A DNA stretch of 64,000 bases from Oxynema aestuarii AP17 (GTDB lineage: Bacteria > Cyanobacteriota > Cyanobacteriia > Cyanobacteriales > Laspinemataceae): the NCBI RefSeq assembly GCF_012295525.1, contig NZ_CP051167.1, positions 5,813,299 to 5,877,298 of the forward strand, given 5' to 3'. The notes under the pieces were generated by a model that made no database searches, was not told where the DNA came from, and saw only the letters and a program-made list of their open reading frames with translations. Each line of letters begins with the position of its first letter. Positions within the stretch are counted from its first letter, which is position 1. Below, piece after piece: positions 61,319-64,000 of the stretch. The translations under genes and the position numbers were made by a program.

Positions 61319-62382
61319 CGTCCACACAAGATAAACGCCGACCAATAATAAGGATCGGCAAAGGGCGTCTCTTCCATTGTAGCGATTGAACTCGACCAAC
61401 TTTTGAAATTACGCAGCAGGGAACGGGGAAAACTCGGATCGTTCTCGAATCGTTCAATTTGTTGCCGATACCAATCCCCTAACCGATCTCGGGTGACGGT
61501 TTTGAGCCATTGTTGGGCGTTAGCAAAGGCGACGGGTTCCGGATGTCCTCGTTCTAATTCCTGATAAAAATAGAGGGAAAACAAGGTACTTCCGAGGGAC
61601 TCGACAGACCATAACGTACTCACGATGTAAGCGACCCGCGATCGCGCAAAGGCGCCGGTCAACCCGACATATTCGCTGGTGATGGTCTCGTCGCCACTGA
61701 CCGCCGTCTCGCAGGCGGACAGGTAAACGAGGCGGTAGGCGCTCAGATCGAGTGAGAGAATGTCCTCGACTGAAAGCCGATCTTCCCCCTGCAAGCATAA
61801 AGCAGAGGCGATCGGATGGCTAAATTCATAATAGCCGTGTCCGCTAAAGTGAAAAGCGCTGTGAGGCTGTTGCAATGCGGCTTTGAGTGCGGCGGCGGTG
61901 GCGTCAGTTCCGGCGAGGCGGGTGTTGCGCCCAAACAGGCGGGCGACGATCTCGGATTCGACCTCGGCGGCGGGGAGGGGGGCGAGGGTTTTGTGAGAAC
62001 CATCCGCCGTTTTGGTCAGACTCGGCGGATTTTCGACGCTGAGGAGGGCGTCAAACCGGGAGGCGTCCGACGGCGTGGGTGCCTCGGGACGGACAAAGGC
62101 GGCACTCGGCAGGTAAGTGAGGGTGCAGGTACGGGGAAAGCGATCGCTGTTGACAAATAAGCCATGGAGGGGAAGGCGATGCAAGTCTTTATGCGGAATC
62201 AGAATCAGATGCTGGTACTCCCGGCAATCCTCCAATTCGTCTAAAATAGCGTCAATCTGCACGATCGCGGCGAGGCGATCGAGTTGTGCTTTTAAGCCCT
62301 TTCGCCAAGAGTCACTTTGGGTGGTGGTTTTGTCCTTTTTGTCCTTGGGATTGCGGTGATAAGTCCGATTCCACTCTTGCAT
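61315..62382 (-). CDS. CHAT-domain (caspase-like) protease. The minimal CDS runs from the first ATG. The ORF stays open upstream into the tandem-repeat array
   Basis: The catalytic dyad contexts HFSGHGYYEF and LVYLSACETAVSGDE are present. ATG at 62382. The open frame continues to 63957 and beyond through the repeats. Confidence 0.7.
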   Translation of the reverse strand: MQEWNRTYHRNPKDKKDKTTTQSDSWRKGLKAQLDRLAAIVQIDAILDELEDCREYQHLILIPHKDLHRLPLHGLFVNSDRFPRTCTLTYLPSAAFVRPEAPTPSDASRFDALLSVENPPSLTKTADGSHKTLAPLPAAEVESEIVARLFGRNTRLAGTDATAAALKAALQQPHSAFHFSGHGYYEFSHPIASALCLQGEDRLSVEDILSLDLSAYRLVYLSACETAVSGDETITSEYVGLTGAFARSRVAYIVSTLWSVESLGSTLFSLYFYQELERGHPEPVAFANAQQWLKTVTRDRLGDWYRQQIERFENDPSFPRSLLRNFKSWSSSIATMEETPFADPYYWSAFILCGR

Positions 62383-62535
62383 CCAGTCTTCTAACTCCCG
62401 CAAATTGCCCGTATATTCGCTTCGATCCTGAAAGCGGTTGTGGTTTAACACCGTCGGTTCGGGCCGATCCGGTTTGAGAATGAAGGTGGTGAGGGCGTAG
62501 GGACTCCAATGCCAGTACACGGCGGCAGTGTATCC

Positions 62536-64000
62536 CCCCCCCGCCCCCCTTGGAAAGGGGGGTGCTGGAGGATTCTCTCCAAGGGGTGAGTTCAAATTCA
62601 CCCCTTCTAAGCCCCCCTTATTAAGGGGGGTTGGGGGGATTTCTCCCGCCCCCCTTGGAAAGGAGGGGGCAACTTGGTCACTCACTTCTGCGGTTCCGAG
62701 TGGGGTGGATCCCCCCCCCGCCCCCCTTGGAAAGGGGGGTGCTGGAGGATTCTCTCCAGGGGGTGAGTTCAAATTCACCCCTTCTAAGCCCCCCTTATTA
62801 AGGGGGGTTGGGGGGATTTCTCCCGCCCCCCTTGGAAAGGGGGGTGCTGGAGGATTCTCTCCAAGGGGTGAGTTCAAATTCACCCCTTCTAAGCCCCCCT
62901 TATTAAGGGGGGTTGGGGGGATTTCTCCCGCCCCCCTTGGAAAGGGGGGAGCAACTTGGTCACTCACTTCTGCGGTTCCGAGTGGGGTGGATCCCCCCCC
63001 CGCCCCCCTTGGAAAGGGGGGTGCTGGAGGATTCTCTCCAAGGGGTGAGTTCAAATTCACCCCTTCTAAGCCCCCCTTATTAAGGGGGGTTGGGGGGATT
63101 TCTCCCGCCCCCCTTGGAAAGGAGGGAGCAACTTGGTCACTCACTTCTGCGGTTCCGAGTGGGGTGGATCCCCCCCCCGCCCCCCTTGGAAAGGGGGGTG
63201 CTGGAGGATTCTCTCCAAGGGGTGAGTTCAAATTCACTCCCTCTAAGCCCCCCTTATTAAGGGGGGTTGGGGGGATTTCTCCCGCCCCCCTTGGAAAGGG
63301 GGGTGCTGGAGGATTCTCTCCAAGGGGTGAGTTCAAATTCACCCCTTCTAAGCCCCCCTTATTAAGGGGGGTTGGGGGGATTTCTCCCGCCCCCCTTGGA
63401 AAGGAGGGAGCAACTTGGTCACTCACTTCTGCGGTTCCGAGTGGGGTGGATCCCCCCCCCGCCCCCCTTGGAAAGGGGGGTGCTGGAGGATTCTCTCCAA
63501 GGGGTGAGTTCAAATTCCCCCTCTCTAAGCCCCCCTTATTAAGGGGGGTTGGGGGGATTTCTCCCGCCCCCCTTGGAAAGGAGGGAGCAACTTGGTCACT
63601 CACTTCTGCGGTTCCGAGTGGGGTGGATCCCCCCCCCGCCCCCCTTGGAAAGGGGGGTGCTGGAGGATTCTCTCCAGGGGGTGAGTTCAAATTCACCCCT
63701 TCTAAGCCCCCCTTATTAAGGGGGGTTGGGGGGATTTCTCCCGCCCCCCTTGGAAAGGAGGGAGCAACTTGGTCACTCACTTCTGCGGTTCCGAGTGGGG
63801 TGTATCCCCCCCCCGCCCCCCTTGGAAAGGGGGGTGCTGGAGGATTTTCTCCAGGGGGTGAGTTCAAATTCACTCCCTCTAAGCCCCCCTTATTAAGGGG
63901 GGTTGGGGGGATTTCTCCCGCCCCCCTTGGAAAGGAGGGAGCAACTTGGTCACTCACTTCTGCGGTTCCGAGTGGGGTGTATCCCCCCCCCGCCCCCCTT
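62536..64000. repeat. tandem array of at least 16 repeat units (alternating ~105-bp and ~72-bp units) truncated by the window end
   Basis: Unit A (~105 bp) is ccccccttggaaaggggggtgctggaggattctctccaaggggtgagttcaaattcaccccttctaagccccccttattaaggggggttggggggatttctcccg. Unit B (~72 bp) is ccccccttggaaaggagggagcaacttggtcactcacttctgcggttccgagtggggtggatccccccc. Unit order is ABAABABAAB.... Near-palindromes CCCCCCTTGGAAAGGGGGG and CCCCCCTTATTAAGGGGGG are present. Confidence 0.9.

Follow-up and report, generated by a model that had tools for sequence, protein, structure and literature searches.

A probable in-frame coding minisatellite of hairpin-element origin in the linker of a TPR-CHAT protease gene of Oxynema aestuarii AP17

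The TPR-CHAT gene and its repeat array

The window analysed here, a stretch of 64,000 nucleotides of the cyanobacterium Oxynema aestuarii AP17, carries near its far edge the C-terminal half of a TPR-CHAT protease gene on the minus strand (61315..62527, with the stop codon at 61315-61317). Its CHAT domain was matched by Pfam (PF12770) at 143 bits (E = 1.5e-41), the curated cut-off being 24 bits. The codons of the catalytic dyad are intact on the minus strand (His at 61837-61839 and Cys at 61711-61713), and the residues concerned, H232 (in GHG) and C274 (in ACET), are invariant in alignment A1 of the family. Downstream lie two further minus-strand genes of a conserved module, namely a conserved partner ORF of 150 aa without a family match (60866..61318), which overlaps the CHAT stop by 4 nt, and, as the third gene, a coiled-coil ORF of 474-499 aa (59309..60808). 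PADLOC returned only a weak BovA match on this operon, and no known defence system matching it was found with Pfam or PADLOC.

An in-frame tandem array adjoins the CHAT half on the minus strand (62528..64000) and runs off the window edge. When the array was split at the anchor CCAAGGGGGGCGGG, its 1473 nt resolved into 15 full units, flanked by an incomplete 72-bp unit at the window edge and by a stub of 26 nt at the other end, all free of indels, in agreement with the count of at least 16 units given by an earlier sequence-only reading of this DNA. Nine of the full units are 105 bp long (A) and six are 72 bp long (B); both lengths are divisible by 3 and the 35-aa and 24-aa peptides quoted in that reading are exact. 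The encoded peptide spans at least 491 aa, with 21.5% Pro and 18.9% Gly. The A unit closest to the CHAT half (PRGAGEIPPTPLNKGGLEGVNLNSPLGENPPAPPF, 35 aa) occupies 62554..62658, with further A units at 62731-62835, 62836-62940, 63013-63117, 63190-63294, 63295-63399, 63472-63576, 63649-63753, and 63826-63930. The first B unit (PRGAGGGSTPLGTAEVSDQVAPSF, 24 aa) lies at 62659..62730 and the others at 62941-63012, 63118-63189, 63400-63471, 63577-63648, and 63754-63825, followed by the partial B copy at the window edge (63931-64000), all on the minus strand. Read on that strand from the window edge, the order is (partial B) ABABABAABABAABA and then the B-like stub of 26 nt. Tandem Repeats Finder (TRF) reported four periods, of 105, 177, 282, and 459 bp, at a match rate of 97-99% and an indel rate of 0%. 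The two unit types are indeed interleaved, but the term “alternating” is only approximate because of two A-A doublets and the 459-bp higher-order period. The units carry distinct combinations of SNPs in a non-periodic order.

In each A unit, core element 1 (GAAATCCCCCCAACCCCCCTTAATAAGGGGGG) and a second core element, which is degenerate, accompany a central hairpin (GGGGTGAATTTGAACTCACCCC). The B unit begins with the same 26 nt as the right-junction stub and ends with 12 nt resembling an A tail, with ~34 nt in the middle; searches for the origin of the unit by blastn-short and Smith-Waterman alignment against the window, the L086 allele, and all loci gave nothing above shuffle level. A direct repeat of ~23 nt, CCCGCCCCCCTTGGAAAGGGGGG, bounds every unit. 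The stub itself (CCAAGGGGGGCGGGGGGGGGATACAC, PRGAGGGY; 62528..62553, minus strand) leads from the array into the CHAT half at “TAAVYWHW” and recurs in the 1-, 2-, and 9-unit alleles described below. It holds one of eight C9 tracts on the forward strand (62534..62542; read as G9 in the sense direction), with the other seven starting at 62711, 62993, 63170, 63452, 63629, 63806, and 63983. Each of the eight is exactly 9 nt long, and the stub tract also measures 9 nt in L001, L004, L086, L207, and L208.

The sequence-only reading took the ATG at 62380..62382 (minus strand) as the gene start and set the array boundary at 62382, with the array fused to the 5' side of the gene. Nine family-invariant residues (Y6, W7, H8, S10, L14, T16, F17, I18, and E48) and the conserved stretch YWHxSPYALTTFILK are nonetheless encoded between the array and this ATG, which is therefore an internal Met codon; the array proper starts at 62528. 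No promoter-like or terminator-like site was found within the array or between the array and ATG 62382, and a gene start at this ATG was rejected on both grounds. Instead of lying on the 5' side, the array is an internal insertion at the hinge, preceded by ~530-680 TPR/helical residues (P0065, P0085). The proposal that it belongs to a larger CHAT protein thus stands, its N-terminal placement does not. In the window strain, the N-terminal half and the left array junction lie beyond the window edge, and continuity of the frame is inferred from other alleles of the same species, in which TPR hits were obtained with Pfam in the N-terminal halves of the L086 (1009 aa) and L208 (1359 aa) ORFs. When the 1-unit allele was modelled with AlphaFold2 (pLDDT 78, pTM 0.75), the insert (residues 189-221) was predicted to be coil with pLDDT <50, between a helix at 177-184 and a strand at 224-232. 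On this prediction, the insert would occupy a loop position compatible with the fold, leading from the last helix of the N-terminal domain to the first strand of CHAT.

Alleles, orthologues, and the reading frame

The comparison of unit number among strains, as suggested in the sequence-only reading, showed that strains of the species carry 1, 2, or 9 units, or at least 16 as in the window, all inserted at one and the same codon. The 1-unit alleles (L004, P0086) contain one A unit and the stub as a 40-aa insert, and the 2-unit alleles (L086, L207) contain two A units differing by SNPs as a 75-aa insert, with L086 lying on a 52-kb contig as an ORF of 1009 aa. The 1-unit sequence combines features of both units in the 2-unit allele and could therefore be an assembler collapse of the latter. 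The full-length 9-unit allele (L208), which came from an exhaustive search of representative proteins, comprises five A units, four B units, and the stub as a 276-aa insert on a 6.31-Mb contig. Its ORF of 1359 aa is intact and begins before the N-terminal half with an ATG preceded 7-14 nt upstream by GAGGAAAA (GAGGA, a putative ribosome-binding site). Over 10.5 kb, the flank of L208 shares 99.78% identity with the window, and flank identity among the alleles is 98.8-99.8%. The inserts measure 120 nt (1 unit), 225 nt (2 units), 828 nt (9 units), and at least 1473 nt (window), and the frame is kept in every allele: each one seen whole is a single open frame that runs out of the N-terminal half, crosses the insert, and closes at the CHAT stop, and the window array lies in the same frame.

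Short-read contigs from two other samples (L001, L002) break inside the array. The terminal unit of L001 matches a variant found elsewhere in the window array, which indicates that arrays differ between populations. The CHAT halves of the window and L086 differ by 8 synonymous and 6 nonsynonymous codon changes over 402 codons, too few to be informative. Protein searches with the N-terminal half, with and without repeats, yielded no N-terminal fragments from long-array strains, and these searches also missed P0001 and P0065, parts of which are 100% identical to the queries. An A-specific pattern gave no match in the first metagenome scan, the collection evidently being without the JGI samples of L004 and L086.

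The closest orthologues read QLLQGQTAVVYWH at the site with no insert; these are Laspinema palackyanum D2a (993-aa ORF), Oscillatoria sp. HE19RPO (1003 aa), and L084 (loci L005, L009, and L084). A scan of genome contigs with the CHAT alignment gave a best match of 56% identity (Laspinema). Distant TPR-CHAT proteins likewise run through the site uninterrupted (..QQLLNPSTAIVYWHLS.. in alignment A1). A composite of ~120 bp, one A unit plus the stub, occupies the position of the orthologous “QLL-QGQ-TAVVYWH”. At a second site in orthologous CHAT genes, 0, 1, 2, or 3 tandem in-frame 51-bp copies of the hairpin element were observed. Some relatives are naturally split at the hinge, as in P0005, which begins with MKKLVKNYSAIVYWH, and in P0069 the frame is lost after a hairpin insert.

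As the sequence-only reading had stated, the minus-strand ORF is open through the whole array: the frame with 63999 as codon position 1 contains no stop from the window edge into the CHAT domain, and the remaining two minus frames contain 25 and 33 stops. One plus-strand frame is likewise free of stops over the array yet opens only 9 codons before it, which makes an open frame weak evidence when taken alone; when a 59-codon period is shuffled, a given frame lacks stops in 15% of cases. Given an in-frame founder A unit, its duplicates are automatically in frame, and hence only the two unit lengths (chance 1/9) speak for selection on the frame. The codon-position check proposed earlier produced no gene-like pattern, with GC contents of 0.675/0.627/0.529 at the three positions of the array, unlike the genes of the window, in which GC3 exceeds GC2; the sequence has not been shaped as coding DNA. 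Variation among units amounts to ~5 synonymous and ~7 nonsynonymous distinct changes, a number too small to be distinguished from neutrality. The array peptide has many PP/PPxP motifs, matches no repeat family in Pfam, and is predicted to release the tryptic peptides GAGEIPPTPLNK, GGLEGVNLNSPLGENPPAPPFPR, and GAGGGSTPLGTAEVSDQVAPSFPR. The sense RNA of one A+B period (177 nt) folds with a computed energy of -96.7 kcal/mol (z = -4.1; 0/200 shuffles as stable). This stable fold, the PP/PPxP motifs, and the eight G9 tracts could impair expression, so that long alleles might be hypomorphic or dead.

Origin of the array and competing readings

The building block of the units is a hairpin core of wide dispersal, CCCCCCAACCCCCCTTNNNAAGGGGGG, with the pattern C6-AA-C6-TT-NNN-AA-G6. 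Both near-palindromes noted in the sequence-only reading are present in the array, CCCCCCTTGGAAAGGGGGG 16 times at 0-1 mismatch and CCCCCCTTATTAAGGGGGG nine times, against a chance expectation of 0.01. Their assignment to a dispersed family is borne out by related intergenic copies in the window at 29424 (29390-29540) and 43481/43530 (43460-43570) and by the occurrence of the 27-nt core in at least 120 metagenome stretches. That reading took membership of the family as an argument for a non-coding array. The core is mostly intergenic, yet 18 of the 84 metagenomic occurrences examined (~21%) fall within reading frames that continue for 60 codons or more in either direction without a stop, and independent in-frame copies recur in CHAT homologues, so that membership does not argue against coding. 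By eye, the ends of the element (GGAGAAATCCCCCC ... GGGGGGGGGATCC) look TIR-like, and the junction shows no target-site duplication. No Rfam family, CRISPR repeat families included, reached the gathering threshold in the window, and a full-text literature search found no description of the core sequence or the peptides.

With its head-to-tail units in multiples of 3, its lack of stops, and its copy-number polymorphism, the array has the features of a coding minisatellite, or intragenic VNTR. It most probably represents a recent in-frame amplification of a dispersed cyanobacterial hairpin element inside the linker of the TPR-CHAT gene. The founder would have been the hairpin composite of ~120 bp, that is, an A unit and the stub, at the TPR/CHAT hinge. 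Unequal recombination between the CCCGCCCCCCTTGGAAAGGGGGG repeats, or replication slippage from one to another, may then have added and removed units, a route with which the 459-bp higher-order repeats and the scrambled order of units between strains are consistent, and only lengths in multiples of 3 (105 and 72 bp) would have persisted. The array is presumed to be transcribed and translated as a disordered Pro/Gly-rich tether of at least 490 aa, connecting the TPR sensor/scaffold half to the protease half. Phase variation by unit number had been raised in the sequence-only reading; unit number does vary between strains, but what changes is length. As both units are multiples of 3 and every allele is in frame, a frame-shifting phase switch was rejected, and copy-number change in a translated array would tune the length of the linker without on/off switching. 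Nor do the G9 tracts point to phase variation by homopolymer length, being 9 nt in all alleles compared.

Three other readings were weighed. The expansion might have killed or split the gene, with long-array strains leaving the array untranslated or expressing the halves separately. The composition of the array, which is not gene-like, its extreme RNA structure, and its eight slippage-prone G9 tracts would all suit such an outcome, as would the relatives split at the hinge (P0005) or out of frame after a hairpin insert (P0069) and the gene callers of several assemblies, which start the CHAT half at an array-adjacent GTG; moreover, units that are 97-99% identical imply an expansion too recent for decay to be visible. 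This outcome is nevertheless considered unlikely, given that the 9-unit allele on a contig of closed quality is a single intact ORF of 1359 aa, that 1473 nt of homopolymer-rich sequence contain neither stop nor indel, that no G9 tract departs from 9 nt in five alleles, that the catalytic dyad is preserved and neither half is disrupted, and that no promoter-like or convincing RBS-like signal precedes GTG 62520 or ATG 62382.

A regulatory or phase-variable non-coding array, structured and lying upstream of a CHAT operon that starts at ATG 62382, was the second option in the sequence-only reading. Strong hairpins from a mostly intergenic family and the strain-to-strain variation in copy number are what it would lead one to expect, but it is contradicted by the conserved protein sequence that flanks the array at either end in a single frame and by the orthologues that are uninterrupted at the site; with the invariant residues upstream of ATG 62382, the absence of a promoter-like site, and units in multiples of 3 that cannot shift the frame, it is regarded as highly improbable. 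Slightly less credence still is given to an assembly artefact, in which a short repeat was over-expanded into the long window array. Such repeats do assemble poorly, and short-read assemblies break or possibly collapse at the array. The artefact was rejected on the strength of the distinct SNP combinations, non-periodic order, and 459-bp structure of the units and of an independent 6.3-Mb contig in which nine A and B units are resolved; contigs L001 and L002, independent and drawn from two further samples, also end at the same right edge. The in-frame coding minisatellite accordingly remains the favoured reading, and the array is more likely to be tolerated selfish DNA than an adaptation.

Relation to known systems and significance

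The passages on the RPEs of Rickettsia in two papers describe dispersed hairpin-forming repeats of ~100-150 bp inserted in frame in conserved genes (PMC10969869, PMC3184786). The present array resembles them as a dispersed palindromic repeat placed in frame at a position predicted to be compatible with the fold, adding a peptide and keeping the ORF. The likeness is one of working only, as the host phylum and the core are different and no sequence relationship is to be expected; the array is therefore kept out of the RPE class. RPEs are also single insertions, whereas tandem arrays of 9 and at least 16 units, polymorphic among strains, are found here.

Intragenic VNTRs make up the repeat regions of staphylococcal Sdr/Clf and streptococcal alpha-like surface proteins. 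The host of the present array differs from these in being a cytoplasmic TPR-CHAT protease, and two unit types are interleaved in it. Phase-variable copy number of tandem repeats has been reported for genes of M. tuberculosis (PMC12817950). The array shares with bacterial coding VNTRs the head-to-tail units in multiples of 3, the strain-variable copy number, and the length-variable, low-complexity spacer that results, but its units are a selfish hairpin element and not an evolved coding repeat.

Elhai et al. reportedly described SDR families, the small dispersed repeats of cyanobacteria, in Genome Res in 2008. Compared by description, the present element is akin to the cyanobacterial MITEs and SDRs in being a short hairpin with a GC stem, mostly intergenic, sometimes intragenic, and at times nested or tandem. 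The published cyanobacterial MITEs include Nezha and those of Microcystis, and the intragenic examples in mcy genes inactivate the gene (PMC3184786, PMC10969869); in contrast, the present array extends its host gene in frame.

The host protein has the same architecture as Csx29, the TPR-CHAT protein of type III-E CRISPR (Craspase; PDB 7y9x, 7zoq), with a TPR half, a C-terminal CHAT domain, and a His/Cys dyad, and its sequence matched Csx29 weakly but significantly (E = 3e-6 to 8e-6). The two are very distant, however. No CRISPR repeat family of Rfam occurs in the window, the 150-aa ORF and the coiled-coil ORF follow the gene here, and the known structures are without a repeat-expanded hinge.

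Repeat DNA tolerated within a gene makes this case unusual but explicable. The locus offers a natural series of 0, 1, 2, 9, and at least 16 units, in which a selfish hairpin enters a gene and grows to a linker of several hundred residues with the ORF unbroken, and it parallels in cyanobacteria what the RPEs show in Rickettsia, with amplification as a further step. There is also a consequence for annotation, since the array interrupts short-read assemblies, in which gene callers then annotate a truncated “CHAT protein” of 401 aa (for example NCBI RMH70720.1), behind which a protein of more than 1350 aa is hidden. If the length of the linker affects the coupling between TPR half and protease, the strains would supply natural variants for studying the regulation of CHAT proteases. 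A bolder proposal, and a rather doubtful one, less probable even than a split or dead gene, is that TPR-CHAT genes are preferred sites for the in-frame landing and expansion of a pan-cyanobacterial hairpin element, with the Pro/Gly hinge put to use by the cell as a rapidly evolvable, length-tunable tether between the TPR and protease halves and the G9 tracts as a high-frequency off-switch. Were this true, a hypervariable hinge would diversify protease activity within populations.

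Reading frame of the array and its site in the gene

The tandem array proposed by the sequence-only reading was borne out between 62528 and 64000 of the window, where TRF returned periods of 105, 177, 282, and 459 bp with 97–99% matches and no indels. With unit boundaries set by cutting the minus strand at CCAAGGGGGGCGGG, the order from the window edge is a partial 72-bp unit, A B A B A B A A B A B A A B A, and a 26-nt B-like stub, unit A being 105 bp (35 aa) and unit B 72 bp (24 aa). The unit peptides and two near-palindromes were exactly as quoted and both unit types are present, but their alternation is interrupted by A A doublets. 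The ORF ending in the CHAT domain is indeed open through the array, with no stops in the minus-strand CHAT frame between the window edge and the CHAT stop codon at 61315, and 25 and 33 stops in the remaining two minus-strand frames. This alone is little proof, because the 59-codon period, when shuffled, is stop-free in 15% of cases; a plus-strand frame is likewise without stops across the array, opening just 9 codons ahead of it. Compared by codon position, the GC content of the array (0.675/0.627/0.529 at positions 1/2/3) is not gene-like beside that of the CHAT half (0.572/0.458/0.619), which fits a recent non-coding origin. The array holds 25 hairpins against a chance expectation of 0.01 and eight G9 tracts, each exactly 9 nt, and the sense RNA folds with high stability (−96.7 kcal/mol per 177 nt, z = −4.1). 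Substitution counts were too few to demonstrate selection.

With the ORF stripped of its repeats (61318–62532, minus strand) as query, a homologue search recovered a cyanobacterial TPR-CHAT protein family, in the alignment of which the invariant residues Y6 W7 H8 S10 L14 T16 F17 I18 are coded directly after the array and upstream of ATG 62382. This ATG, previously taken as the gene start, was therefore rejected as such and is an internal Met; no promoter-like site was found on the minus strand between it and the array. Distant homologues continue N-terminally via '...QQLLNPSTAIVYWH...' to a helical region and TPR repeats. At the insertion site the closest orthologues, from Laspinema palackyanum D2a (993-aa ORF, 56% identity), Oscillatoria sp. 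HE19RPO (1003 aa), and the metagenomic contig L084, read 'QLLQGQTAVVYWH' without any array. Uninterrupted orthologues and conserved residues after the array thus show it to be inserted at a hinge within the gene. The proposal of a coding array within a larger CHAT ORF therefore holds in substance, though not its N-terminal placement, and the alternative of a non-coding array upstream of a CHAT operon was rejected; the insert lies inside the gene and keeps to its reading frame. AlphaFold2 modelling of the one-unit allele (pLDDT 78, pTM 0.75) put the insert, residues 189–221 with pLDDT < 50, between helix 177–184 and strand 224–232, so that the array occupies a predicted unstructured connector. 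Membership of the host protein in the CHAT family is secure (Pfam E = 1.5e-41), with the His/Cys dyad kept in its CHAT half; its kinship with Csx29/TPR-CHAT, for which structures are known, is only distant (E about 1e-6). In some cyanobacteria, family members apparently break or end at this hinge (proteins P0005, P0069, P0070, and P0073): P0005 is a CHAT half standing alone and beginning 'MKKLVKNYSAIVYWH', and P0069 (Cylindrospermum NIES-4074) departs from the family frame directly after a 'TPPFLRGS' hairpin insert.

The gene heads a conserved three-gene module, followed by a 150-aa ORF that shares a 4-nt overlap with the CHAT stop and a 474–499-aa coiled-coil ORF (59309–61318, minus strand), which recurs in the retrieved contigs L001, L004, L084, L085, L086, L207, and L208; no Pfam or PADLOC family was found for either downstream ORF. 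The coiled-coil homologue in locus L005 carries its own in-frame hairpin element at 13418. TRF also reported a perfect direct repeat (50 bp × 2, 46600–46699) and a diverged one (126 bp × 2.7, 8221–8564) in the window.

Copy-number alleles within the species

Unit number varies among strains, at 1, 2, 9, and at least 16 units. One A unit plus stub (insert 40 aa) is found in L004 (4.8-kb contig) and P0086 (861 aa, 17-kb contig); the CHAT half of this allele has 98.8% nucleotide identity to the window, and the single unit could reflect assembler collapse. Two A units plus stub (75 aa) occur in L086 (52-kb contig, 1009-aa ORF with TPRs) and, from a separate sample, L207, the two units being separable by SNPs. 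Five A, four B, and stub (276 aa, 828 nt) make up the allele of L208 (6.31-Mb contig, JGI 3300059096), whose flank matches the window at 99.78% identity across 10.5 kb and whose gene is a single 1359-aa ORF. This ORF begins at an ATG, with GAGGAAAA 7–14 nt upstream; in the window, the array (at least nine A, seven B, and stub; insert at least 491 aa) continues past the edge, with its left junction outside. Given an L208-like N-terminus of 679 aa, the window protein would have a minimum length of about 1570 aa. Short-read contigs L001 and L002, from two further samples, end within the array. Unit order and unit variants differ among the window, L208, and L001, and array turnover is therefore fast relative to the flanks.

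Gene callers place the CHAT start at a GTG or 'M' adjoining the insert, even with the frame open to the contig edge (L207 1–1674), and the 401-aa call RMH70720.1 (P0064; NCBI MAG 'Cyanobacteria bacterium J007') begins at the codon adjoining the array; in public annotation, a truncated 401-aa protein thus stands for a gene of >1000 aa. Near-identical 34-aa TPR units in the N-terminal half, beyond the window edge, also vary in number (L208 10001–12040 vs L086 9536–11125). The length ahead of the insert is 679 aa in the nine-unit protein P0085, 530 aa in the two-unit P0065 (beginning at P0085 residue 42), and shorter yet in P0086; the gene may hold a second copy-number-variable repeat region, or short-read assemblies may have collapsed the TPR units.

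Descent from a dispersed hairpin element

Unit A comprises a core, GAAATCCCCCCAACCCCCCTTAATAAGGGGGG, encoding IPPTPLNKGG, a central hairpin, GGGGTGAATTTGAACTCACCCC, and a degenerate second core, AATCCTCCAGCACCCCCCTTTCCAAGGGGGG, which in the last L208 unit is the canonical AATCCCCCCCAACCCCCCTTGGAAAGGGGGG. Unit B, missing from the one- and two-unit alleles, consists of the stub, a middle of ~34 nt (CCCACTCGGAACCGCAGAAGTGAGTGACCAAGTT; e.g. 62659–62730), and the A tail; no source of this middle was detected in the window or any fetched locus. The array descends from a dispersed hairpin element, to which the near-palindromes had rightly been assigned: clusters related to the core lie in intergenic DNA at 29390–29540 and 43460–43570, and at least 120 metagenome stretches match its 27-nt pattern. 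Among 84 occurrences examined, 18 (21%) lie in frames that run at least 60 codons without a stop to either side, including some in ORFs longer than 1000 aa, the remainder being intergenic in appearance. In common with the array units, the intergenic clusters (29390–29560 and 43460–43570) carry a GGGGGGTTGGGGGGAT module and have GATCCCCC/GGGGGATC ends. The first has a tail, ctaaatgtcttacatagcagaggaaaa, that resembles the L208 sequence directly upstream of the TPR-CHAT start codon, tctcaatgtcctgcatagcagaggaaaa, so the dispersed element may include that segment.

When the hairpin C5-6TTN2-5AAG5-6 was counted in 79 CHAT-homologue loci (L005–L083), 12 of the 21 clusters fell within CHAT-homologue ORFs, which account for only 18% of the sequence (binomial p = 7e-5); examples are L005 10517–10640, L043 10411–10580, L026 814 and 1184, L061 10348 and 10536, and L074 8412 and 8485. 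A second site, the loop directly before 'LLSIENP/LLSIEHP', has received insertions repeatedly, and the closest orthologues there carry 0, 1, 2, or 3 tandem in-frame copies of a 51-bp sister element.

A probable coding minisatellite and its alternatives

The array, which lies in frame within the gene and is polymorphic in copy number among strains, is probably an in-frame coding minisatellite. Its entry resembles that of Rickettsia palindromic elements, described in PMC10969869 and PMC3184786 as selfish hairpin DNA in frame within conserved genes, although by sequence it probably does not belong to those families; its behaviour after entry is like that of bacterial intragenic VNTRs. Neither the core and its peptides nor any CHAT gene expanded by repeats was described in the literature searched.

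That strains with long arrays have a gene inactivated in function or split is unlikely; against it, the nine-unit allele reads as one ORF, and for it, the codon-position GC of the array is not gene-like. An upstream non-coding array and an assembly artefact have, between them, a very small probability. A frame-shifting contingency locus was rejected, and with it the suggested phase variation through unit number, the units being multiples of three and the G9 tracts invariant in the alleles seen. It is unlikely that the element favours CHAT genes as hosts and that the cell exploits the variable hinge, or the G9 tracts within it, to diversify protease regulation. As a coding minisatellite, the array would gain and lose units by unequal recombination or slippage at the ~23-nt repeat bounding every unit, with frame-breaking variants presumably purged. 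It would be translated into a disordered tether (21.5% Pro, 18.9% Gly), so that changes in copy number would alter the length of the linker in this protease and leave its expression state unchanged.
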